Below are positions 14,985 through 59,576 of a stretch of DNA of 64,000 bases, in pieces. Numbering within the stretch: the stretch's first letter is position 1; every line of letters starts with the position of its first letter. A model generated the notes under the pieces. It saw nothing but the letters and a program-made list of their open reading frames with translations. It searched no databases and was not told the origin of the DNA. Source of the DNA: an uncultured archaeon (GTDB lineage Archaea > Aenigmatarchaeota > Aenigmatarchaeia > CG10238-14 > SCSR01); the NCBI GenBank assembly GCA_964400475.1, contig CAYNTH010000003.1, positions 3,283-67,282 on the forward strand, in the 5' to 3' direction. Position numbers and translations under genes: made by a program.

Positions 14985-17303
14985 TTATTTTCCTTTAATT
15001 CCTTCCAATTTCTTTTCCGCTCTTTTTTGATATTTTTTTGCGGTTGATACAGACACGTCTAATTTGTCCGCTATTGTTTCGGGCCTCAGTCTCAATAAAC
15101 TCTTGGCAGTTGTCACTCTGCTCTTTTTCAGTATTTCGGCACCCTTTTCACCGATGCCCTTTATGTCAGTTATCTCTATTCTTTTCCTGGATTTTTTCTT
15201 CTTCTTTTTCACCTTGTCTTTGACCCAACTTTCCTTTGTCTTGCATTTATGGTTGATACACATCGTGTATGGTCGCTTGCCTTTTCTATTTACTTTTATC
15301 ATCATCATACCACATTCTTTGCAGGGTCTGTTTAATTTCGTTATATATCCATTTTGAGGCAGGGGAAATCCTGTTTTGCATTTGGGATATCCTCCACATC
15401 CTACAAAGCGCTTCTTGGTCCTCTTGGATACGATGACTTTTAATCTATTGTCGCAGTTGGGGCAGTCACCCATATCGTTTTCTTCTTTCCTAGCTTCTAT
15501 CAATCCTTTCAATAATTTTTTACCTATTTTTTTCTCCTTTTTCTTGAAGTCTTTCAGGGTGTCTGTTAATAATTCTTTGGCTTCCTGTACAATTTTCTCC
15601 CTTTTTTTCTCCCCTTTTGCCACATCTTCCATTTCTTTTTCGAATTTTTTGGTCATTTCTTCACTGAGTATCCTAGGACAGTACCCCTTTAGGACTTTGG
15701 TAACAGTCTCCCCCAGTTTAGTGACTTTGATGCTTTTTCCATTTATGTATTTTCTGTTATAGAGTGTTTGAAGTATTTCGGCTCTAGTCGCTCTTGTACC
15801 CAACCCCTTGGACTCCATCTTTTTTAGTATAGATCCCTGGCTGTATCTTCCTGGCGGGTTGGTTTCTTTCTCACCCAATCGGATTTTGCTAATTTCTAAT
15901 TCATCGTCTTTTTTCATGTCTGGGAGTTCTTGATCTTCGAATGACAAGAATTTTTTGTAGTATCTTGTCCACCCGGGTTCCAGTGTTTTCTTGCCCTTGA
16001 GTTTGAATTTGTGACCGTTAACATCCAATTCGACTGTAACGCTCTCCCGTACAGTCTTTTCGGAAAAAACCGACAGGAATCTTCTAACAATGAGGTCATA
16101 CATTTTTCTTTGTCTGTTGCTAAGCTTGGATAATTTCGGTGTTTCCGATGTTGGATATATTGCAGGGTGGGCAGGATCTTTCTTTTTACCTTCATTTGGT
16201 TCCAGTTTGGATTTTGTCAGTAGCTCTTGTGATGGACCCGAATAAGTTTTTAATTTAGACAAAGATTTTATTATTTTTTTATAATCAATACTTGGCGGGA
16301 GCTTTTGTGACGAAGATCTCGGGTATGAAACAGCACCTGCTTGGTATAAACTTTCCACTATTCTCAGTGTATATTTAGGAGAATATTTGAATTGAGAATA
16401 TGCCTCAGATTGGAGGTCGGTTGTATTGAATGGAACCGGTGGATTTTGGCTGTATTTCCTCTTTCTTATCTTTTTTACAACAGCCTTTGCCCCTTTTTTC
16501 TTACAATCCTTTTTGACATTTTTCGCATCTTTCTTGTTCCACATTCTTTTCTTTTTGTACGATGCGGTTAATTTTTTGTCATTCTTTTTTACATCTGCTT
16601 CTATCTGCCAATATGGTTTTGGCTTGAATTTTCTTATCTTGAGTTCCTTTTCAAGTAAAATATCCAGGGTCGGTCCTTGGACTCTTCCAGTAGATAGTAT
16701 CGCAAAGCCTTTATCAGCTGATTTTTTCATAGCTATTGTTAATGCTCTAGTCAGATTTATGCCCCAATAAAAATCTAGATAATGTCTGGTCAATCCAGAT
16801 TCTATTTGATTGAAATCCAGTTTTTCCATCCTATTTTCAAACGAGTCATTTAGTTCGTCTTTTGTCAGGGTTGAGAATTTCATTCGATGTGCGTTTTTCT
16901 CTCCTGACATGAAGCGTATTATGTTGTACCCTATTACGGAACCTTCTGTATCGTAATCGGTCGCTATTATAAAATTAGTTTTGGACTTGTCTTTAGATTT
17001 CTTTTCTATAACTTCTTTTATGTTCTTAAAATATTTTTTAGAGAATTCTGATCCCTTTTTCTCAAAACTAGGTATCCATTCGGTTTTGAATGTGGGATAA
17101 GTCCAACCGGAACCATCCTTTACAGTATCCAATGCGAATATATGTCCGACTGCGGGTAGGACTATGAATTCATCCCCGTCTTTCACGAATTCGTACCAAT
17201 ACGATCCACGCTTTTTCTTTTTTCTAACCTTTTTACCTGCTAGTGCTTCGGCTATCTTTGTTGAAGCGCTGGGTTTTTCTGTTATTAAAATATTTGTCTG
17301 CAT
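14985..17303 (-). CDS. topA: Type IA DNA topoisomerase with zinc ribbons and an appended C-terminal HhH module
   Basis: 772 aa. Toprim start (ILITEKPSAS), a TDYDTEGS acidic cluster, the catalytic-Tyr region (AVSYPRSSS), CPNC/CGGYPKC/CKEC zinc ribbons, then KKKKKKSRKR plus ITDIKGIGEKGAEILKK... Confidence 0.9.
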   Translation of the reverse strand: MQTNILITEKPSASTKIAEALAGKKVRKKKKRGSYWYEFVKDGDEFIVLPAVGHIFALDTVKDGSGWTYPTFKTEWIPSFEKKGSEFSKKYFKNIKEVIEKKSKDKSKTNFIIATDYDTEGSVIGYNIIRFMSGEKNAHRMKFSTLTKDELNDSFENRMEKLDFNQIESGLTRHYLDFYWGINLTRALTIAMKKSADKGFAILSTGRVQGPTLDILLEKELKIRKFKPKPYWQIEADVKKNDKKLTASYKKKRMWNKKDAKNVKKDCKKKGAKAVVKKIRKRKYSQNPPVPFNTTDLQSEAYSQFKYSPKYTLRIVESLYQAGAVSYPRSSSQKLPPSIDYKKIIKSLSKLKTYSGPSQELLTKSKLEPNEGKKKDPAHPAIYPTSETPKLSKLSNRQRKMYDLIVRRFLSVFSEKTVRESVTVELDVNGHKFKLKGKKTLEPGWTRYYKKFLSFEDQELPDMKKDDELEISKIRLGEKETNPPGRYSQGSILKKMESKGLGTRATRAEILQTLYNRKYINGKSIKVTKLGETVTKVLKGYCPRILSEEMTKKFEKEMEDVAKGEKKREKIVQEAKELLTDTLKDFKKKEKKIGKKLLKGLIEARKEENDMGDCPNCDNRLKVIVSKRTKKRFVGCGGYPKCKTGFPLPQNGYITKLNRPCKECGMMMIKVNRKGKRPYTMCINHKCKTKESWVKDKVKKKKKKSRKRIEITDIKGIGEKGAEILKKSRVTTAKSLLRLRPETIADKLDVSVSTAKKYQKRAEKKLEGIKGK
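14988..15179 (-). repeat. HhH-module repeat copy 1 (3' end of topA)
   Basis: Encodes IEITDIKGIGEKGAEILKKSRVTTAKSLLRLRPETIADKLDVSVSTAKKYQKRAEKK. By manual alignment about 85% of ~120 nt are identical to 46212..46379. Confidence 0.85.
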
Positions 17304-19921: not shown

Positions 19922-20587
19922 CTATTCATCACCTTTATTAACGGAGCTCAGAATATTCCTCATATTGTGTGCCATTTTCTCACCGATTCCCCTCACCTTT
20001 TTCAATTCGTCCTCACTTGCGCTAAATACTCCCTCGATGCTCCCAAATTTATCCAATAAGCGTTTGCTGATAACAGAATTTATGCCAGGTATTCCGGATA
20101 TTATTTGTTCCTTCAATTTTTTCAAATCTTTGGATTTTTTACCAATCTTAATCGAAACCGGTCTGTTTCTCCCAATCTGTTCCTTGTTGGCTATCCAATA
20201 AATTGTCAATGCGGTGTCCTTGGGATTCTTTGTTGATATCACGGATGCACCGTAGTTTATGATTAGCGTTGACATAGCCGCTTTAAGTGCATTTATTGAT
20301 ATGTTTCTATTAGACGAACCTTCGATTATGAATACGGGCTTCTCGAACTCTTTCTTCATTATCCTGGCTTGATCGAACAATCTACCATCAATTATAGATG
20401 ATACAAAGTCTGGGTGGTCTTTTCTTTCAATGACAACTTGATCGGAAACAATGAAGTCCCCCACGGATAGCGGGGATTCACTGATATGCGCACCGAATGT
20501 TTTCAACGCGTTTATAACTTTCTTTTCCCTGTAATCACACGCCACGATTATTTTACCATCTGTTTTAATGATTTTTTGGGTTTTCAT
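19922..20587 (-). CDS. hef: ERCC4/XPF-type nuclease with C-terminal (HhH)2 (Hef nuclease half)
   Basis: ACDYREKK...GDFIVSDQVVIERKDHPDFVSSIIDGRLFDQ is the ERCC4 motif GDF..ERK. The C-terminal GIPGINSVISKRLLDKFGS...VRGIGEKMAHNM is the HhH pair. Confidence 0.8.
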   Translation of the reverse strand: MKTQKIIKTDGKIIVACDYREKKVINALKTFGAHISESPLSVGDFIVSDQVVIERKDHPDFVSSIIDGRLFDQARIMKKEFEKPVFIIEGSSNRNISINALKAAMSTLIINYGASVISTKNPKDTALTIYWIANKEQIGRNRPVSIKIGKKSKDLKKLKEQIISGIPGINSVISKRLLDKFGSIEGVFSASEDELKKVRGIGEKMAHNMRNILSSVNKGDE

Positions 20588-44031: not shown

Positions 44032-45219
44032 ATGGCAAAGAAAAAGAAATCCAAGAAAAAGAAGAAAAAAGGTCTTAAGACAAAGAAGGCTCGGATGAAA
44101 GAAGTTAAAAAATTCAAAGAGAAAGTTCTGGATAAATACGGGGAAATCGTTAAAACTATCGTAGTGATGGGTTCCGTTGCTAGGGAGGAATTCAAACCAG
44201 AAAGTGATATAGATGTTTTTGTTGTTATAGACGATACTAAAGAGAAACTATCTAAACAAAAACACGATGAGATAAACGCTACTCTGGAGAGAATGGCCAA
44301 GGATATATCGAAGTCAGGTGTTTTGTCGATACAGCCAACTTATACACTGACCGAGTTTTGGAATTATGCCAGGGTCGGACATCCGATAATATACAATTTT
44401 ATCAAGGAGGGTGTTCCGGTATACGATGTCGGATTCTTTATGCCCATTAAAAGGTTGTTGAACATGGGCAAGATACCTTCCACGCGCGAAGCCATAGAGA
44501 GCTATATGGAAGGTGCGCCAAAGAAATTGATGAGAGCGAAGACGGTGAAGTTACTGATGTTGGCAGAGGATTGTTATTATGCTATGTTGAATACTACTCA
44601 GGCAGTCCTGATGTTCATGGGAGTCGAGCCGCCAGTCCCGAGCAAGGCGCATAAAGCTGTTCAGAAATATCTGATCGAACCCAAAATACTTGATGAGAAG
44701 TACGCTGATTGGTTGAAGGATATTATCGAACTACGGAAGAAAATAGAGCACAAGGAAATAATGGATGTAGAGGGTAGTTATGTGGATGAATGGTTGGGCC
44801 GGGCCGAGAAATATGTGGAGAAAATGTTCAATCTTTTGGGGGCATTGGAATTGCGTAAAAAGGAAAAAGTGCTTCAGAGAACACACGACGTCATGTATAA
44901 GGCGGCTATAACCGCGTTGAAGAGTTTGAAGAAGGAACCTGAGAAGGAATCAGAAATTCCAATCCAGTTCAGAAAAGAATTTATAAAAACCGATCTCATA
45001 GAGGGATATTATTGGGATATATGGGAACGGATTGAAAAGATGAAGGAAACCGTCGATGAAGATAAAAAGAATATAAAGGATATACCAGAGAAAGACGTTT
45101 ATCAGATGCGTGAGTACGTAAGGAAGATGATACGTGATTTAGCCAAGGCACTTAAGAAAAATGGTATAGAAAATACTGTTGACACTTTGCCTGATAATAA
45201 AAAGAAAAAAGAAGATTAA
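44032..45219 (+). CDS. Nucleotidyltransferase (MNT-type) fused to a HEPN-like domain (Rx4H present)
   Basis: Lys-rich N-terminus, VVMGSVAREEFKPESDIDVFVVIDD, then a helical domain with ELRKKIEHKE (R-x4-H). Confidence 0.65.
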   Translation: MAKKKKSKKKKKKGLKTKKARMKEVKKFKEKVLDKYGEIVKTIVVMGSVAREEFKPESDIDVFVVIDDTKEKLSKQKHDEINATLERMAKDISKSGVLSIQPTYTLTEFWNYARVGHPIIYNFIKEGVPVYDVGFFMPIKRLLNMGKIPSTREAIESYMEGAPKKLMRAKTVKLLMLAEDCYYAMLNTTQAVLMFMGVEPPVPSKAHKAVQKYLIEPKILDEKYADWLKDIIELRKKIEHKEIMDVEGSYVDEWLGRAEKYVEKMFNLLGALELRKKEKVLQRTHDVMYKAAITALKSLKKEPEKESEIPIQFRKEFIKTDLIEGYYWDIWERIEKMKETVDEDKKNIKDIPEKDVYQMREYVRKMIRDLAKALKKNGIENTVDTLPDNKKKKED

Positions 45220-46394
45220 TCTTCTTTAGATTTGTTTTCGACTTCTTCTTCTATACCGAGTCTATCTATCATTTCTTTGTATCTGTTCCTGATGGTGACT
45301 TCTGTTACACCCACTATATCAGCGACCTCTCTTTGTGTCCTCTTCTCTCCTTCAAGAACACACGCTACATATATGGCAGCCGCTGCGACTCCTGTAGGTC
45401 CTTTACCCGAAGTTATGTCGAATTTTTTGGCCTTTTTCAAAATTTCTATTGCTTTTGCTTGGACCTTATCACTCAGCTTCAACATAGAACAGAATCTTGG
45501 AACATAATCTGCTGGATCTGCCGGCAATATTCTTATATTAAGTTCCCTTGCAACATACCGATATGTCCTCCCGATTTCCCTTTTATCAACACCGCTAGCT
45601 TTCGATATCTCTTCTAGGGTTCTCGGCGAACCGAATTCTCGACTAATCGCATATGTCAATGCAGCGACCACAGATTCTATACTCCTACCTCTGACCAATC
45701 CCTTGTTAACAGCTTGTTCGTAATATCTGGCTATCCTCTCGTGCACAGGTCTGGGTAAATTCAAAAATGAGACTATCCTCTGTAGTTCGGATAATGCAAA
45801 TGACAAATTTCTATCCTTGGATTTTATTAGTCTTTTGTGCCATTTTGTGAGTCTATAATATTGTGCCCTCTTCTTAGCAGGTACCTTGTACAATTCTCCA
45901 AGGCCTTTGCCTATTTCAGTTGTCAATCCCTTGTCATGTTTTGTAAATGTCAACGGGGCACCTCCTCTCGCACGCCTCTTCATTTGCTCACTGTCGAATG
46001 CCCTCCATTCTTGCCCAGTGTCAACTATTTCTTCTTTGATAATTGCTCCGCATTTAGCACAGTATCTCTCTGCTCTGGAAGAATCCTCTATGAATTTTGT
46101 GCCACCGCACTCTGGACAGGCACCTGACTTTGTTTTAGAAGTTTTAGCTTTTTTCATAGCTTTCTTTTTGGGTTTCTTTCCTTTTTTACTTTTTCTTTTC
46201 TTGCCTTTCAGCTTTTCCGCTCTTTTCTGATATTTTTTAGCAGTTTCAACAGAAACGTTTAATTTGTCTGCGAGTGTTTCTGGATTCAATCTCAATAAAC
46301 TCTTGACAGTGGTCACCCTGCTCTTTTTCAGAACTTTGGCACTCTTCTTCCCTATTCCCTTAACCTTTGTAACTGGTATTCTTTTCTTAGCCAT
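45216..46394 (-). CDS. tfb: Transcription factor B (TFIIB homolog) with an N-terminal HhH module and Lys-rich linker
   Basis: Zn ribbon CPECGGTKFIEDSSRAERYCAKCG, B-reader/linker and two cyclin repeats. It is preceded by MAKKRIPVTKVKGIGKKSAKVLKK... and KGKKRKSKKGKKPKKK. The track ORF extends to 46430; ATG 46394 is preferred. Confidence 0.9.
   Translation of the reverse strand: MAKKRIPVTKVKGIGKKSAKVLKKSRVTTVKSLLRLNPETLADKLNVSVETAKKYQKRAEKLKGKKRKSKKGKKPKKKAMKKAKTSKTKSGACPECGGTKFIEDSSRAERYCAKCGAIIKEEIVDTGQEWRAFDSEQMKRRARGGAPLTFTKHDKGLTTEIGKGLGELYKVPAKKRAQYYRLTKWHKRLIKSKDRNLSFALSELQRIVSFLNLPRPVHERIARYYEQAVNKGLVRGRSIESVVAALTYAISREFGSPRTLEEISKASGVDKREIGRTYRYVARELNIRILPADPADYVPRFCSMLKLSDKVQAKAIEILKKAKKFDITSGKGPTGVAAAAIYVACVLEGEKRTQREVADIVGVTEVTIRNRYKEMIDRLGIEEEVENKSKED
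46212..46379 (-). repeat. HhH-module repeat copy 2 (5' end of tfb)
   Basis: Encodes IPVTKVKGIGKKSAKVLKKSRVTTVKSLLRLNPETLADKLNVSVETAKKYQKRAEK. Closely matches 14988..15179. Confidence 0.85.
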
Positions 46395-46572
46395 GATAAT
46401 CACATTTTTTGTTACTTCAAAGTGAAACAAAATTTCAAACTTATTTAACTATATACCAAAAGCTATTTAAATGTTTCTATATTTACAAGAATTTTGCATT
46501 CTGTTTTGGGTGTTCTGGGAAAAACAAAGAAATAAAACTATCCAGTCATAATTTTATTAAAGGTGTAATTTT

Positions 46573-46788
46573 GTGGTTAAAGATTTCCCGTCAAGTCCGA
46601 TTGAGCGCGTTATAAGAAACTCGGGTGCGGAAAGGGTTTCTTCGTCTGCAGTTAAAGAAATGAAAGATATAATGCTGGATATAGCTGACAAGATATCTAT
46701 TGAAGCGGTTCTGGCCGCCAGGCATGCTGACAGAGTTACGGTCAAGAAAGACGATATAGAACTTGTTACCAGACTTAGTAGAAGATGA
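46573..46788 (+). CDS. Archaeal histone (HMf family)
   Basis: SPIERVIRNSGAERVSSSAVKEMKDIMLDIADKISIEAVLAARHADRVTVKKDDIELV aligns along its whole length with HMfB as I recall it. GTG start after AAGGTG. Confidence 0.9.
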   Translation: MVKDFPSSPIERVIRNSGAERVSSSAVKEMKDIMLDIADKISIEAVLAARHADRVTVKKDDIELVTRLSRR

Positions 46789-46797
46789 TGTGATTAT

Positions 46798-47184
46798 ATG
46801 AAAAAGACAGCAGACATAACCAAGCTGAAGTCGGGCGGGTTCATTATAATTGATGATGTTCCTTGTAAAATCGATAAAGTATCAAAATCGACTTCTGGTA
46901 AACACGGCGCAGCTAAGGTAAGGGTCGATGCCATCGGATTGTTAGACAACAAACGGAGGAGCATAGTTAAACCTTCGGGCGACTCTGTTTATGTTCCTAT
47001 AGTTGATAAGAGGATCGCCCAGGTGCTTTCGATGTCTGGTAATAGGGTTCAATTGATGGATGTTGAGAACTATGAGGTATTTGAATTGGAAATACCCGAG
47101 GAAATAAAGGACGAGATTAAGGCCGGTACAGAAACAAGTTATTTCATTGTTGCAGGAGAGAAGACATTGAAACGAGTTAAATAA
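46798..47184 (+). CDS. eif5a: Translation initiation factor 5A
   Basis: Hypusine-loop motif STSGKHGAAKV. 128 aa, SH3-like plus OB layout. Confidence 0.9.
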   Translation: MKKTADITKLKSGGFIIIDDVPCKIDKVSKSTSGKHGAAKVRVDAIGLLDNKRRSIVKPSGDSVYVPIVDKRIAQVLSMSGNRVQLMDVENYEVFELEIPEEIKDEIKAGTETSYFIVAGEKTLKRVK

Positions 47185-47185
47185 A

Positions 47186-47500
47186 TTAATCCATCACTAC
47201 CTTACAACTCCCTTCAATACATTCGCAATGACCCTGACCACAGTCCATTGTCCCTGGTTCGCATACTTCTGTACAAAATACGTCAGTACAGTCTGGTGCC
47301 TGGTTTCTCGGAATACAAGATGTTGCATGACAGCATGTTGCGGGTACACAATCATTCGATGTTAAGCATCCCTTTTCAAGTGTATTCAACATCCCGACTT
47401 CGCTAAGGAACACGAACGATATTAATATTATCATCAATCCGAGCACGGCCATAACGAATTTGTTGTTCGATTTTTCGAAGAGTTTCTCGGTTTTAGACAT
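47186..47500 (-). CDS. Small anchored or secreted Cys-rich protein
   Basis: 104 aa. N-terminal hydrophobic segment, then 14 Cys in about 65 aa (CLTSNDCVPATCCHATSCIP...CGQGHCECIEGSC). Confidence 0.5.
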   Translation of the reverse strand: MSKTEKLFEKSNNKFVMAVLGLMIILISFVFLSEVGMLNTLEKGCLTSNDCVPATCCHATSCIPRNQAPDCTDVFCTEVCEPGTMDCGQGHCECIEGSCKVVMD

Positions 47501-47559: not shown

Positions 47560-48075
47560 ATGGACTTAAAGGAAAAAAGAAAGCTGATAATGTTTTCAAC
47601 CCTGTTTGGATTGATAATTACTCTTGTATCATCATTACTCATCAATTCCTATGTTATAGGCGAATTTCCTAATATAGTGTTTGTTTCAATACCCATACTA
47701 GGTGTCAGGTATTTTGGATATCCCTTGCCCTGGTTGAAAGAAATCGTATACCCTGGATCACCGAAGAATTTTATATATGTACACCTGTTCATAGATTTCT
47801 TGTTCTGGACTGGATTCGTTGCCCTTCTTAAATTGGCAAAAATGGACTTAAGCGAGCCGAAAAAGAAGATATCGAAAAAGACAACTAGAAAGGATGCCCC
47901 TGTCACAGATATAAATGGAATCGGAAAGAAAACCGCGGAGAAATTGGCCAAAAGTAGAATCAAAACCGTTAGGGGATTATTATCACTGAATCCAGAGACA
48001 TTGGCCGAAAAAATCGACGTGAGTGTGGAAACGGCCAAGAAATACCAGAAGAGGGCCAAGAAAATATCTAAATAG
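47560..48075 (+). CDS. Membrane protein (3 TM) with a C-terminal HhH module
   Basis: Three hydrophobic helices, a Lys-rich linker (EPKKKISKKTTRK), then VTDINGIGKKTAEKLAKSRIKTVRGLLSLNPETLAEKIDVSVETAKKYQKRAKK. Confidence 0.6.
   Translation: MDLKEKRKLIMFSTLFGLIITLVSSLLINSYVIGEFPNIVFVSIPILGVRYFGYPLPWLKEIVYPGSPKNFIYVHLFIDFLFWTGFVALLKLAKMDLSEPKKKISKKTTRKDAPVTDINGIGKKTAEKLAKSRIKTVRGLLSLNPETLAEKIDVSVETAKKYQKRAKKISK
47902..48072 (+). repeat. HhH-module repeat copy 3 (more diverged)
   Basis: Protein-level homolog of the topA and tfb modules. Nucleotide similarity is lower but still visible. Confidence 0.7.
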
Positions 48076-54422: not shown

Positions 54423-54450
54423 TAGGATCAAACTATTTATCAAGATTTAG
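54423..54450 (-). promoter_or_regulatory. 3' arm of the pre-23S processing stem
   Basis: Complementary to 57563..57590 as 13 bp, a 3-nt bulge, 6 bp, a 3-nt bulge on the opposite strand, then 6 bp. Confidence 0.75.
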
Positions 54451-57562
<3,112 letters not shown>

Positions 57563-57590
57563 CTAAACCTCCTTGATTAGTTTGATCCTA
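57563..57590 (-). promoter_or_regulatory. 5' arm of the pre-23S processing stem
   Basis: The RNA TAGGATCAAACTAATCAAG-GAG-GTTTAG pairs with CTAAAT-CTTGAT-AAA-TAGTTTGATCCTA at 54423..54450. Confidence 0.75.
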
Positions 57591-57965
57591 TGGTAGTATC
57601 ATAATTTGTGGCTCATTTAGACAGTTCGATCCTCACTCATCGGAAAACACACCGTCCTAAGACGGGCTCACTGTGTTTATTACTCCGTGTCAGATACATG
57701 TCTTTTTAATCACAGCCTCAACTCTTCAACCCCGAGGTTCAGTCGGGATTTGCATATTACATAATTTCGCCAAGTGTCGCTTTGCGAATTTATCGTCCAA
57801 AGAACGCTCAATTGCTTTAACGCAACTTACCCGCTTAGCATCGCAAGGTGTCCTTGTCATCATCGAATCAGAAACAGAACACGCTCATCGCTAAGCAAAG
57901 TAGAAAAGTGAGCGTATATATTATTCCTGCATAGCGACACCGACTATCTCTATTATAGTCATAAC

Positions 57966-57973
57966 TATTTAAA
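57966..57973 (-). promoter_or_regulatory. Candidate TATA box for the 23S transcription unit
   Basis: The minus-strand sequence reads CTTTTTAAATAGTTATG. TTTAAATA lies about 380 nt upstream of the processing stem. Confidence 0.35.
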
Positions 57974-58056
57974 AAGCTTTCGTACAGAAATCCAACATGT
58001 CATGTATGTAAATCCCTCTATGTGAATCGATTTAATTCATTGTATGGATCATCATA

Positions 58057-58164
58057 TCATATCTTTATTTTTCCATTCACCATGTGATGCTCTAATTCTA
58101 CGTGTTTTTTGAGTTCTTGTTTAGTTTCGAAAACTGCATCGCAATATATGCAATGCTCTAACAT
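58057..58164 (-). CDS. 35-aa C2H2 zinc-finger micro-protein (copy 1)
   Basis: Manual translation: MLEHCIYCDAVFETKQELKKHVELEHHMVNGKIKI, with C-x2-C-x12-H-x4-H spacing. Confidence 0.45.
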   Translation of the reverse strand: MLEHCIYCDAVFETKQELKKHVELEHHMVNGKIKI

Positions 58165-58267
58165 GATATCTAGTTAAAGATGATATCATGGTAGATAAAA
58201 GTATTGTTATCGCTAGCTTAGTGATAATCCTAGAAGAATAGCTAGTTACTGGACATTACTTAAAAAA

Positions 58268-58375
58268 TCAAAGCTTAACTTGTCCCCTGGCCCTGGAGTG
58301 GCTTTCTGCTACATGTGATTCCAGCTCTTTCCTGGTGCTGAAAGTAGCATCACACAATATGCAATTTTCTGCCAT
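58268..58375 (-). CDS. 35-aa C2H2 zinc-finger micro-protein (copy 2)
   Basis: Manual translation: MAENCILCDATFSTRKELESHVAESHSRARGQVKL, with the same length and Cys/His spacing as copy 1. Confidence 0.45.
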   Translation of the reverse strand: MAENCILCDATFSTRKELESHVAESHSRARGQVKL

Positions 58376-58423
58376 CTTATATCTAATTAGATACGTGTTG
58401 GTATCAATAAAAGTTTAACTGAG

Positions 58424-59470
58424 TCAATTTATTTCTTTTAGGTCGTATCCTCGTTCACCCATCCCAAATTTCTCCCCGAACTCCACGTGCGATTTCGGGT
58501 CCACACCCTGTATCTCCTGTAATTTCTTTCCGATTTCATCCTCGATCAAGTCGATCGATGCCTCATCTATTGCCACAGGATTATCTGATATTACTATTCC
58601 CACGTCAGGCGCTATTATCGGGCCTGCATCGCTTGCACAATCACATCTTTTGCTTATGTCTGTTAATATATTCACGAATATATTTTTCTTAGGTTTGTTG
58701 TTTTCGTCATATTTATTCAGACACGCATATGCGGCTGCTGCCAACATTTCGTGGAAATTCTCACCCTTCCAAACAAGTCCGTTGTAATCGCATGTTTCAA
58801 CACATTTTTCACAACCAAGGCATTTTCCATAATCTATTACCAATTTGTCTTCAATTGATATTGCCTTCATCGGACATGCTTCTACGCAAGCACCACATAA
58901 TTGACATTGTTCATGGTTGATTACAGGTGCACCAGCAGCGTGTATGAACCCCTTCGATTCCTTGGACACTCCCCCCATCCCGAATGCTTTGATCGATCCG
59001 CCAAAGCCGGTCATTCCATGGCCTTTACCATGTGCTATTGATAGAACGAATTCGGATTTACATAATTCCTCGGCTACTTCGAATCCATAAGTATTATCCC
59101 CGACATCTACGTTTATCGTATAACCTTCGTTGCCTATAACCACATCGCATATATCATCGAATCCGTGATCTTTTGAGGTTTCTGCATATTTTTCTTTGGT
59201 ATCACGACCACCAGGATATTTCACGGCTGTATCGAACAGAAATGGATTAGAGTTTATATTTTCTAGGATATTGACAAAGTGTTTGATGAAATCCGGCTTG
59301 ATGTAGAATTTGTTGCCTCTTTCACCCATATGCAATTTCACCAGTACGTCTTTGCCCGAGAATTCGTCAAATCCAAATTCTTTAAGGGCGGACTCTACTT
59401 TGCCCATATGTTCTCCTTTTTCAAATGATTTCCTATTGCCCCTGATCAAAATTACTTTCGACATATACAT
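58424..59470 (-). CDS. DUF362-family protein with an inserted 2x[4Fe-4S] ferredoxin domain
   Basis: KVILIRG...DVLVKLHMGERGN at the N-terminus, with CQLCGACVEACP and CLGCEKCVETC. The track ORF (to 59545) runs into tRNA-Ala, so the start at 59470 or 59464 is preferred. Confidence 0.65.
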   Translation of the reverse strand: MYMSKVILIRGNRKSFEKGEHMGKVESALKEFGFDEFSGKDVLVKLHMGERGNKFYIKPDFIKHFVNILENINSNPFLFDTAVKYPGGRDTKEKYAETSKDHGFDDICDVVIGNEGYTINVDVGDNTYGFEVAEELCKSEFVLSIAHGKGHGMTGFGGSIKAFGMGGVSKESKGFIHAAGAPVINHEQCQLCGACVEACPMKAISIEDKLVIDYGKCLGCEKCVETCDYNGLVWKGENFHEMLAAAAYACLNKYDENNKPKKNIFVNILTDISKRCDCASDAGPIIAPDVGIVISDNPVAIDEASIDLIEDEIGKKLQEIQGVDPKSHVEFGEKFGMGERGYDLKEIN

Positions 59471-59504
59471 CAATACCATTAAATTGTTGTTTCTAAAATA
59501 AAAG

Positions 59505-59576
59505 TGGACCGACCGGGACTTGAACCCGGAGCCTCTTCCGTGCAAGGGAAGCGATCTACCATTGATCTATCAGCCC
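59505..59576 (-). tRNA. tRNA-Ala (anticodon UGC)
   Basis: Hand-folded. Acceptor GGGCTGA/TCGGTCC with the G3:U70 Ala identity pair, anticodon loop CTTGCAC, T arm CCGGG-TTCAAGT-CCCGG. No encoded CCA. Confidence 0.9.

Follow-up and report, generated by a model that had tools for sequence, protein, structure and literature searches.

Helix-hairpin-helix (HhH) domains are known to be promiscuous, and paired units, here written (HhH)2, bind the DNA backbone without sequence specificity. Fusions of HhH domains to DNA topoisomerase I (TopA) are also known. Higher DNA affinity or processivity has been attributed to the HhH repeats of topoisomerase V (Topo V) and to the HhH tails that Methanosarcinales TopA bears. 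The HhH domain of ComEA faces outward. Published reports describe structures of Topo V with DNA, involving 12 tandem (HhH)2 domains (PMC9489208), a Phi29 polymerase-HhH chimera with enhanced salt tolerance and replication performance (PMC8313265), and, as an HhH-related match, a T7 RNA polymerase chimera that tolerates salt better (PMC12630135). Here we examine a module of 56 amino acids (aa) found three times in a stretch of 64,000 nucleotides (nt) from an uncultured archaeon (GenBank assembly GCA_964400475.1, contig CAYNTH010000003.1; the whole stretch is hereafter called the window). The copies lie on three unrelated proteins: TopA, TFB (a transcription factor) and a small membrane protein with two transmembrane (TM) segments. 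Comparison with relatives suggests that polycationic tails were already present on these proteins and that a small (HhH)2 cassette, copied within the lineage, probably entered them in frame. The locus does not represent a new kind of system.

Each of the closest described systems shares part of this arrangement. The HhH-tailed TopA of the Methanosarcinales type (NF005555/PRK07220) has the same succession of Toprim, Topoisom_bac, zinc (Zn) ribbons, basic linker and C-terminal (HhH)2, but its tail shares only 34-38% identity with the window module and the window protein scores below the family cutoff. Topo V of Methanopyrus kandleri likewise has (HhH)2 units appended to a nucleic-acid enzyme, whereas the window TopA has one unit on a Lys-rich linker and is a type IA, not a type IC, enzyme. 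Unlike Topo V and the HhH-polymerase chimeras, the window module is also present on a transcription factor and a membrane protein. A TFE-alpha with a C-terminal HhH (P0125), which bears the closest module outside the window, shares a K/R-rich linker and a basal transcription factor as host; however, that host is TFE and not TFB, the module is at the other terminus and the lineage is another one. No TFB with HhH was found among the relatives retrieved or in the literature searched, and the 50% clustering of the representative protein library would hide such fusions. Literature searches on DPANN HhH fusions and on Lys-rich tails of Aenigmarchaeota returned nothing relevant.

The window membrane protein can be compared with ComEA-type proteins and with archaeal "2-TM + (HhH)2" proteins, of which there are many in archaeal metagenomes (MRxDYxLY...). 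All combine an N-terminal membrane anchor with a C-terminal (HhH)2, but the TM cores are, by eye, not evidently homologous, and the linker of the window protein is Lys-rich rather than Pro/Gln-rich. In contrast to ComEA, the tail of the window protein is predicted to be cytoplasmic: its basic N-terminus and basic tail fall on the same side of two strongly hydrophobic segments (aa 10-33 and 72-92, from hydropathy), which under the positive-inside rule would place the tail in the cytoplasm. A widespread group of metagenome proteins of 150-220 aa (L027-L029, L031-L035, L037, L038 and L041) illustrates the archaeal type: a conserved N-terminus of the form MR[SL]DY.LY..AIIFFI precedes two TM helices, and a Pro/Gln-rich spacer leads to a C-terminal (HhH)2 whose last residues are KWIENAK.

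Searches with each copy by TBLASTN recovered exactly three copies of the module in the window (copy-to-copy E 1e-20 to 1e-26), the next match having an E of ~0.01-0.05 (table 1). A preliminary description, made from the letters alone, had placed these copies on topA, tfb and the membrane protein, and its coordinates and peptides proved right when compared with open reading frames (ORFs), BLASTN and TBLASTN; it made no mention of topA and tfb being on the minus strand. A BLASTN alignment of the window to itself pairs topA 15012-15161 with tfb 46212-46361 (150 nt aligned, 82% of them identical, E 1e-38). The membrane copy is matched by tfb over 70 nt at 74% identity (E 1e-7) and gives no nucleotide-level match with topA. 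Over the 56 in-register codons, identical nucleotides number 131/168 (78%) for topA/tfb, 102/168 for topA/membrane and 105/168 for tfb/membrane; at the protein level the topA and tfb modules are 77% identical, and the three copies are mutually 77, 70 and 64% identical. The match of about 100 of 120 nt between topA and tfb, estimated earlier by hand, was measured as 96/114 nt over the same 38-aa stretch. The high nucleotide identity claimed for the repeat thus applies to the topA/tfb pair and not to the membrane copy, and even in that pair the proportion of synonymous differences (pS) is 0.53 and the longest exact run 16 nt. Nucleotide homology between topA and tfb begins at GAAAAGAATA (codons K-R-I) and fades beyond GAGCGGAAAAG (A-E-K). 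A local profile built from the three-copy alignment scores the window's own proteins at ~125-128 bits.

In all three hosts the module lies within a basic tail, and the Lys-rich linker said to join each copy to its host was seen every time. The layout is ...KKKKKKSRKR-[module]-KLEGIKGK* in TopA, MAKKR-[module]-LKGKKRKSKKGKKPKKK... in TFB and ...KKKISKKTTRKD-[module]-ISK* in the membrane protein.

Several lines of evidence agree with the original view that the module is an HhH domain. The membrane copy matches Pfam HHH_5 (PF14520) with 34.5 bits, above the gathering score of 27, and close relatives reach 32.7 (P0125) and 40.3 bits (P0134). An AlphaFold (AF2) model derived from the three copies has a mean pLDDT (predicted local distance difference test) of 86 and the helix pattern expected of (HhH)2, with modelled helices at 10-19, 25-30, 33-40 and 44-55 plus a short N-terminal turn. 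Searched with Foldseek against the PDB, the model matches the N-terminal (HhH)2 of RadA/Rad51 (archaeal RadA and eukaryotic Rad51; TMq 0.75-0.87, root mean square deviation, rmsd, 1.5-2.0 A) as well as the thumbs of Y-family polymerases (Pol iota/Dpo4), all matches having a TMq of 0.72-0.87 and an rmsd of 1.5-2.4 A over 52-55 residues. Model and matches together display two helix-hairpin-helix motifs with a connector helix, that is, the five-helix pseudo-symmetric fold. A profile search of PDB sequences added Pol IV and XPF, together with weak matches to ComEA and to HhH repeats of Topo V. We therefore regard the module as a predicted single (HhH)2 unit, apparently a narrow subfamily of HHH_5. 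It resembles the HHH_5 prototype (the RadA-Rad51 N-terminal domain) in its predicted helical arrangement, in a canonical first hairpin K-G-I-G-x-K, whose G-I-G is invariant in all copies, and in the long C-terminal helix that comes after a second hairpin. It differs from it in that the second hairpin reads [DN]-V-S, K-S-R-[VI] replaces the "AG[IV]" after helix 2, and the last helix carries the subfamily signature TAKKYQKRA. Weak Pfam matches of the last two helices to helix-turn-helix or sigma-70 region 4 families (E 5e-4 to 0.02) were also considered and rejected, as the fold match favours (HhH)2.

Relatives of the hosts provide clues on the origin of the module. Among the 69 nearest TopA relatives (53-72% identity), searched with the module profile at maximum sensitivity, the module was absent from every one (69/69). 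These proteins end 8-57 aa past the last zinc-ribbon Cys (with one outlier at 107 aa), mostly in Lys-rich tails. Similarly, no module alignment was obtained in the 120 best TFB relatives (core identity 79-91%, with a query coverage of only 72-86%). The 15 longest of the best TFB matches start with MAKKK or MARKK and have a tail of ~20-80 aa before the Zn ribbon, Lys/Arg-rich in nearly all of them and devoid of HhH. For the membrane protein, a contig here called L042 (GCA_016933765.1, JAFGAH010000025.1) offers a syntenic comparison, with the order TFB, PIN, histone, aIF5A and then a 153-aa protein. The histone-aIF5A pair beside tfb is kept on this contig, where a PIN gene is present in addition and no Cys-rich protein is called at that place. 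By its equivalent position and orientation and a shared TM core (IGEFPNI...GYPL...YPGS), the 153-aa protein is an orthologue of the window membrane protein; HhH is absent from it and it ends in a Lys/Arg-rich tail. The L042 contig holds archaeal TFB, histone, aIF5A and ELP3, yet its source names the proteins "Kosmotogaceae bacterium", which suggests that the taxonomy was mislabelled or the bin contaminated.

Because the relatives checked carry plain Lys/Arg-rich tails and the window module sits inside such a tail, the module is a lineage-specific gain in an Aenigmarchaeota-like DPANN lineage, a placement taken from the names of the best TFB and TopA matches. The existence of TopA and TFB without the module in relatives is thereby confirmed, and the module did not turn out to be an ancestral, universal part of these proteins. 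The earlier proposal of shuffling between unrelated genes stands in view of these absences from TopA (69/69), TFB and the membrane orthologue; its further suggestion that the event was recent, or that gene conversion was at work, does not.

Basic tails themselves are common in Aenigmarchaeota, in TFB as 20-80 aa before the Zn ribbon, mostly Lys/Arg-rich and of low complexity, and in TopA as Lys-rich C-terminal stretches of 8-57 aa. Polycationic tails on core DNA-transaction proteins appear to be, by themselves, a feature of the lineage.

The relative age of the copies was approached with Nei-Gojobori counts over the 56 in-register codons. For topA and tfb the synonymous distance (dS) corresponding to the pS given above is ~0.93 and the nonsynonymous distance (dN) 0.14, giving a dN/dS of 0.15, with 21/37 differences at third codon positions and 22% of nucleotides differing. 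Against the membrane copy dS is saturated in both comparisons (topA, pS 0.91 and dN 0.30; tfb, pS 0.94 and dN 0.25). Use of the same codon at identical residues, compared with the expectation from window codon usage, gives a concordant pattern: topA and tfb share 29/43 codons versus 16.3 expected (z = 4.2), whereas the membrane copy shares 10/36 with topA and 11/39 with tfb versus 13.8 and 14.3 expected. The membrane copy is similar at the protein level only. As a calibration, orthologues of the window and L042 are saturated (pS 0.78-0.95), so that the topA/tfb pair has a nucleotide-level ancestry younger than the split from the L042 lineage, in relative timing only, which fits the absence of the module from L042. 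A pS of 0.53, a dS of ~0.9, a dN/dS of 0.15 and a membrane copy without codon-level similarity speak against the "recent" shuffling or active gene conversion put forward before; the similarity is explained by purifying selection rather than by ongoing gene conversion. Around the three copies we found no consistent terminal inverted repeats (TIRs) or target-site duplications (TSDs), the one repeated word being the low-complexity GAAAAGA, which is present close to either end of both the topA and the tfb copy. A mobile element inserting in frame, of the miniature inverted-repeat transposable element or insertion sequence kind, was rejected since no TIR or TSD is shared by the flanks of the copies.

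To place the module in a wider context, an exhaustive hidden Markov model (HMM) search was run over 1.84 billion representative proteins (50%-identity clusters), yielding only 201 hits at E <= 1e-3, of which 21 had E <= 1e-10. A narrow subfamily with the signature K[SN]R[VI].T..LL.L.PET.A.K..[VI]SV..A.KYQ.RA comprises three clusters among the best 150 of the 201: the window membrane protein, P0124 and P0125. P0125, a TFIIE_alpha homologue with a K/R-rich linker and a C-terminal module (82 bits, 55-62% identity to the window copies), lies on two ENA contigs (L044/L045) beside rhomboid and SpoIIM genes. P0124 has the same neighbours; its locus, L026, is the one close relative found in the metagenome scan. 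At L026 (18-502) the 58-aa "stand-alone" HhH ORF that constitutes P0124 shares 4 nt with the end of a 103-aa coiled-coil ORF. Upstream of it the HhH frame has no stop for another 18 codons, which encode a K-rich linker; a longer protein has therefore probably been frameshifted in an A-rich tract, with P0124 as its C-terminus, the shift being either a sequencing error or real. A TFE gene or copy was looked for in the window and none was found.

More distant members are fused to coiled-coil proteins, 2-TM and other membrane proteins and a KaiC/RadA-like ATPase. HHH_5 modules on Lys-rich linkers were also observed on the ribosomal proteins S6e, L13e, L22 and L32e, the last with four tandem units, in apparently archaeal metagenome proteins (P0189, P0232/P0173, P0171 and P0135 in the representative library).

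In a neighbour-joining tree of the modules (56 columns, bootstrap), the window tfb and topA copies group with 94% support and P0124 with P0125 with 93%. The clade of all three window copies receives only 44%, so that a single intragenomic origin of the membrane copy is no more than likely.

Four other histories could place one domain on these three genes, and all of them fit the data less well than copying within the lineage into existing tails. The module might be ancestral, at least to TopA, the window retaining an old state that was lost repeatedly in relatives. TopAs with a C-terminal (HhH)2 do exist in Methanosarcinales, as in Methanococcoides (L002 1871..4162), and the model of HhH-tailed TopA, PRK07220 (NCBIfam NF005555), aligns end to end with the window TopA, tail included (aa 5-761 onto positions 3-738 of 740). 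Yet the score of this alignment, 579.2, is under the cutoff of 635, leaving the window TopA outside the equivalog, and the module is missing from the 69 nearest TopAs, the nearest TFBs and the syntenic membrane orthologue. Moreover, the topA module is 77% identical to that of tfb versus 34% to the Methanococcoides tail (34-38% in all), which indicates that the history of the module is decoupled from that of its host. Given that the nearest TopA relatives have no tail domain, the TopA-HhH architecture arose independently in the window lineage. Ancestral presence is thus largely refuted, and we hold it to be very improbable. Even less credence, next to none, is due to an assembly or binning artefact in which chimeric joins duplicated one sequence. 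The contig is of metagenome type, low-complexity A-rich DNA can misassemble and L026 has a probable frameshift in such a tract; the copies, however, differ at 22-39% of nucleotides, lie in frame with intact hosts on one contig, and in topA/tfb have a dN/dS of 0.15, with differences concentrated at third codon positions.

The remaining two scenarios are unlikely in a less extreme way. Old copies could be kept alike by ongoing gene conversion among the three loci, as the excess of shared codons in topA/tfb and a pS of 0.53, well under the saturated values of the orthologues, might suggest. Nevertheless, this pair differs at 22% of nucleotides and has no exact run beyond 16 nt, the differences (mostly the 21/37 at third positions) are spread along the module with no mosaic tract in the alignment, the membrane copy has no codon-level signal, and one duplication of intermediate age accounts for the data equally well. 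We consider conversion improbable. Marginally easier to entertain, though still unlikely, is that a mobile HhH family reached each host by a separate horizontal transfer, each time from a different donor, and not by copying within the genome. The narrow subfamily does occur in another DPANN-like lineage, on TFE (P0125, L044/L045) and at L026; the three-copy clade is weakly supported (44%), and comparison of the membrane copy with the other two shows saturation. On the other hand, the window copies are mutual best matches among the 1.84 billion representative proteins (77, 70 and 64% versus <=62% outside), and the topA/tfb pair retains nucleotide-level ancestry.

Some observations also weigh against copying of a cassette within the lineage. 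The nearest sequenced relatives are distant (TopA <=72% identity), and at the borders of the three copies no repeat signature backs any particular insertion mechanism. A scan of GTDB representatives with the module, in a set without the window genome or close relatives, found no close module, the matches being generic HhH (Bacillus, Lachnospiraceae and others) and the Methanococcoides TopA tail. To these should be added the 44% bootstrap of the three-copy clade. As for the class of the domain, the tfb (23.1 bits) and topA (17.1 bits) copies are both under the HHH_5 gathering score of 27, and the second hairpin is degenerate, with [DN]-V-S-V in place of G-h-G or G-h-S.

Copying within the lineage, our preferred explanation, would have proceeded by duplication of the module into the Lys-rich tails of at least three proteins, namely the C-terminal tail of TopA, the N-terminal tail of TFB and the C-terminal tail of the 2-TM membrane protein. 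The older copy would be the one on the membrane protein or else one that lies unseen in another part of the genome, and the topA/tfb pair would be the youngest event, with all copies kept by purifying selection at present. The route of insertion may have been illegitimate or microhomology-mediated recombination in the purine-rich (AAR)n DNA that encodes Lys tails. By analogy with characterized (HhH)2 units, the window module would be expected to bind DNA, and each copy could be envisaged as a DNA-gripping "hand", a non-specific clamp, on a flexible polycationic "arm". On TopA, it might confer higher DNA affinity or processivity, by analogy with the HhH repeats of Topo V, the tails of Methanosarcinales TopA and the engineered HhH-polymerase chimeras. 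On TFB, where it is N-terminal to the RNA polymerase-docking Zn ribbon, it might provide an extra non-specific DNA contact stabilising the pre-initiation complex. Because the tail of the membrane protein is predicted to be cytoplasmic, on the basis of its basic N-terminus and tail and the positive-inside rule, that copy might tether chromosomal DNA to the membrane rather than act as a ComEA-like external receptor.

This is an unusually clean, if modest, case of natural domain shuffling at intermediate age, with one domain on three unrelated proteins in one 64-kb stretch and module-less orthologues representing the "before" state, a bare polycationic tail. An N-terminal HhH on TFB offers a testable idea on the strengthening of promoter or DNA engagement in genome-reduced archaea, and it parallels the fusions of Topo V HhH domains to polymerases made by engineers. 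A broader proposal, which we put forward as a rather doubtful speculation, is that the Lys-rich tails of DPANN nucleic-acid-handling proteins act as "landing pads": their (AAR)n DNA would let a (HhH)2 cassette enter in frame by microhomology and spread, within and between genomes, onto TopA, TFB, TFE, S6e, L13e, L22, L32e and membrane anchors. Were it true, it would constitute a prokaryotic, intron-free analogue of exon shuffling, and a TFB with its own DNA clamp would alter the hold of the minimal archaeal pre-initiation complex on AT-rich promoters.

Table 1. Positions of the module copies, their linkers and their host genes in the window.
Feature	Position (nt)	Strand	Description
topA	14985..17303	-	ORF of 772 aa; archaeal type IA DNA topoisomerase I with Toprim, Topoisom_bac, Zn ribbons, Lys linker and HhH module
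TopA Lys-rich linker	15180..15224	-	aa 694-708, VKDKVKKKKKKSRKR; matches the Lys-rich C-terminal tail that ends the proteins of relatives
HhH module copy 1	15012..15179	-	TopA aa 709-764; BLASTN/TBLASTN; local HMM 117 bits
TopA end beyond module	14988-15011	-	KLEGIKGK; stop codon 14985-14987
tfb	45216..46394	-	Starts with the ATG at 46394 and encodes 392 aa; module followed by Lys linker, Zn ribbon and two cyclin/TFIIB repeats
HhH module copy 2	46212..46379	-	TFB aa 6-61; immediately after MAKKR
TFB Lys-rich linker	46122..46211	-	aa 62-91, LKGKKRKSKKGKKPKKKAMKKAKTSKTKSG; between module and Zn ribbon; equals the basic N-terminal tail of relatives
Small membrane protein	47560..48075	+	ORF of 171 aa; hydrophobic aa 10-33 and 72-92, Lys linker aa 93-112, module aa 113-168
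HhH module copy 3	47896..48063	+	Membrane protein aa 113-168; most diverged copy at the nucleotide level

The identity of the two enzymatic and regulatory hosts is clear from family models. TopA scores 703.1 bits with TIGR01057 (topA_arch, cutoff 458) over aa 7-642 and has Pfam matches to Topoisom_bac (3e-124), Toprim and Zn_ribbon_Top1. TFB scores 409.2 bits with NF001658 (cutoff 384) over aa 80-382; Pfam TFIIB matches two stretches of it (4e-45), and Zn_Ribbon_TF covers aa 92-133. The mechanical ORF of tfb opens with the TTG at 46430; a database protein identical to TFB is 392 aa long, and TFB relatives begin with MAKK or MARK.

In the neighbourhood of tfb, the convergent gene at 44032-45219 (+) encodes a protein with a Lys-rich start (...KKKKSKKKKKKGLKTKKARMKEVKK...) and no HhH module, a basic-tailed protein spared insertion; the gene at the corresponding place in L042 bears NTP_transf_2/Polbeta domains. 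Between tfb and the membrane protein gene lie an archaeal histone (46573-46788, +), aIF5A (46798-47184, +) and a Cys-rich protein of 104 aa with an N-terminal hydrophobic segment (47186-47500, -). An unrelated HhH pair (~19958-20146, ..ELKKVRGIGEKMA..) is found at the C-terminus of a 221-aa ORF (19922-20587, -) beside a 512-aa ORF; it resembles the tail of XPF/Hef-type nucleases and falls outside the repeated module family. As for ribosomal RNA (rRNA), no match to 16S or 5S was found anywhere within the window, which contains a complete archaeal 23S rRNA (54446-57568, -) with a tRNA-Ala(UGC) (59505-59576, -) ~1.9 kb upstream. The spacer between them (57569-59504) contains a 373-aa ORF (58424..59545, -) whose start overlaps the tRNA, and the rRNA genes of the window may be unlinked or their spacer may have received an insertion.

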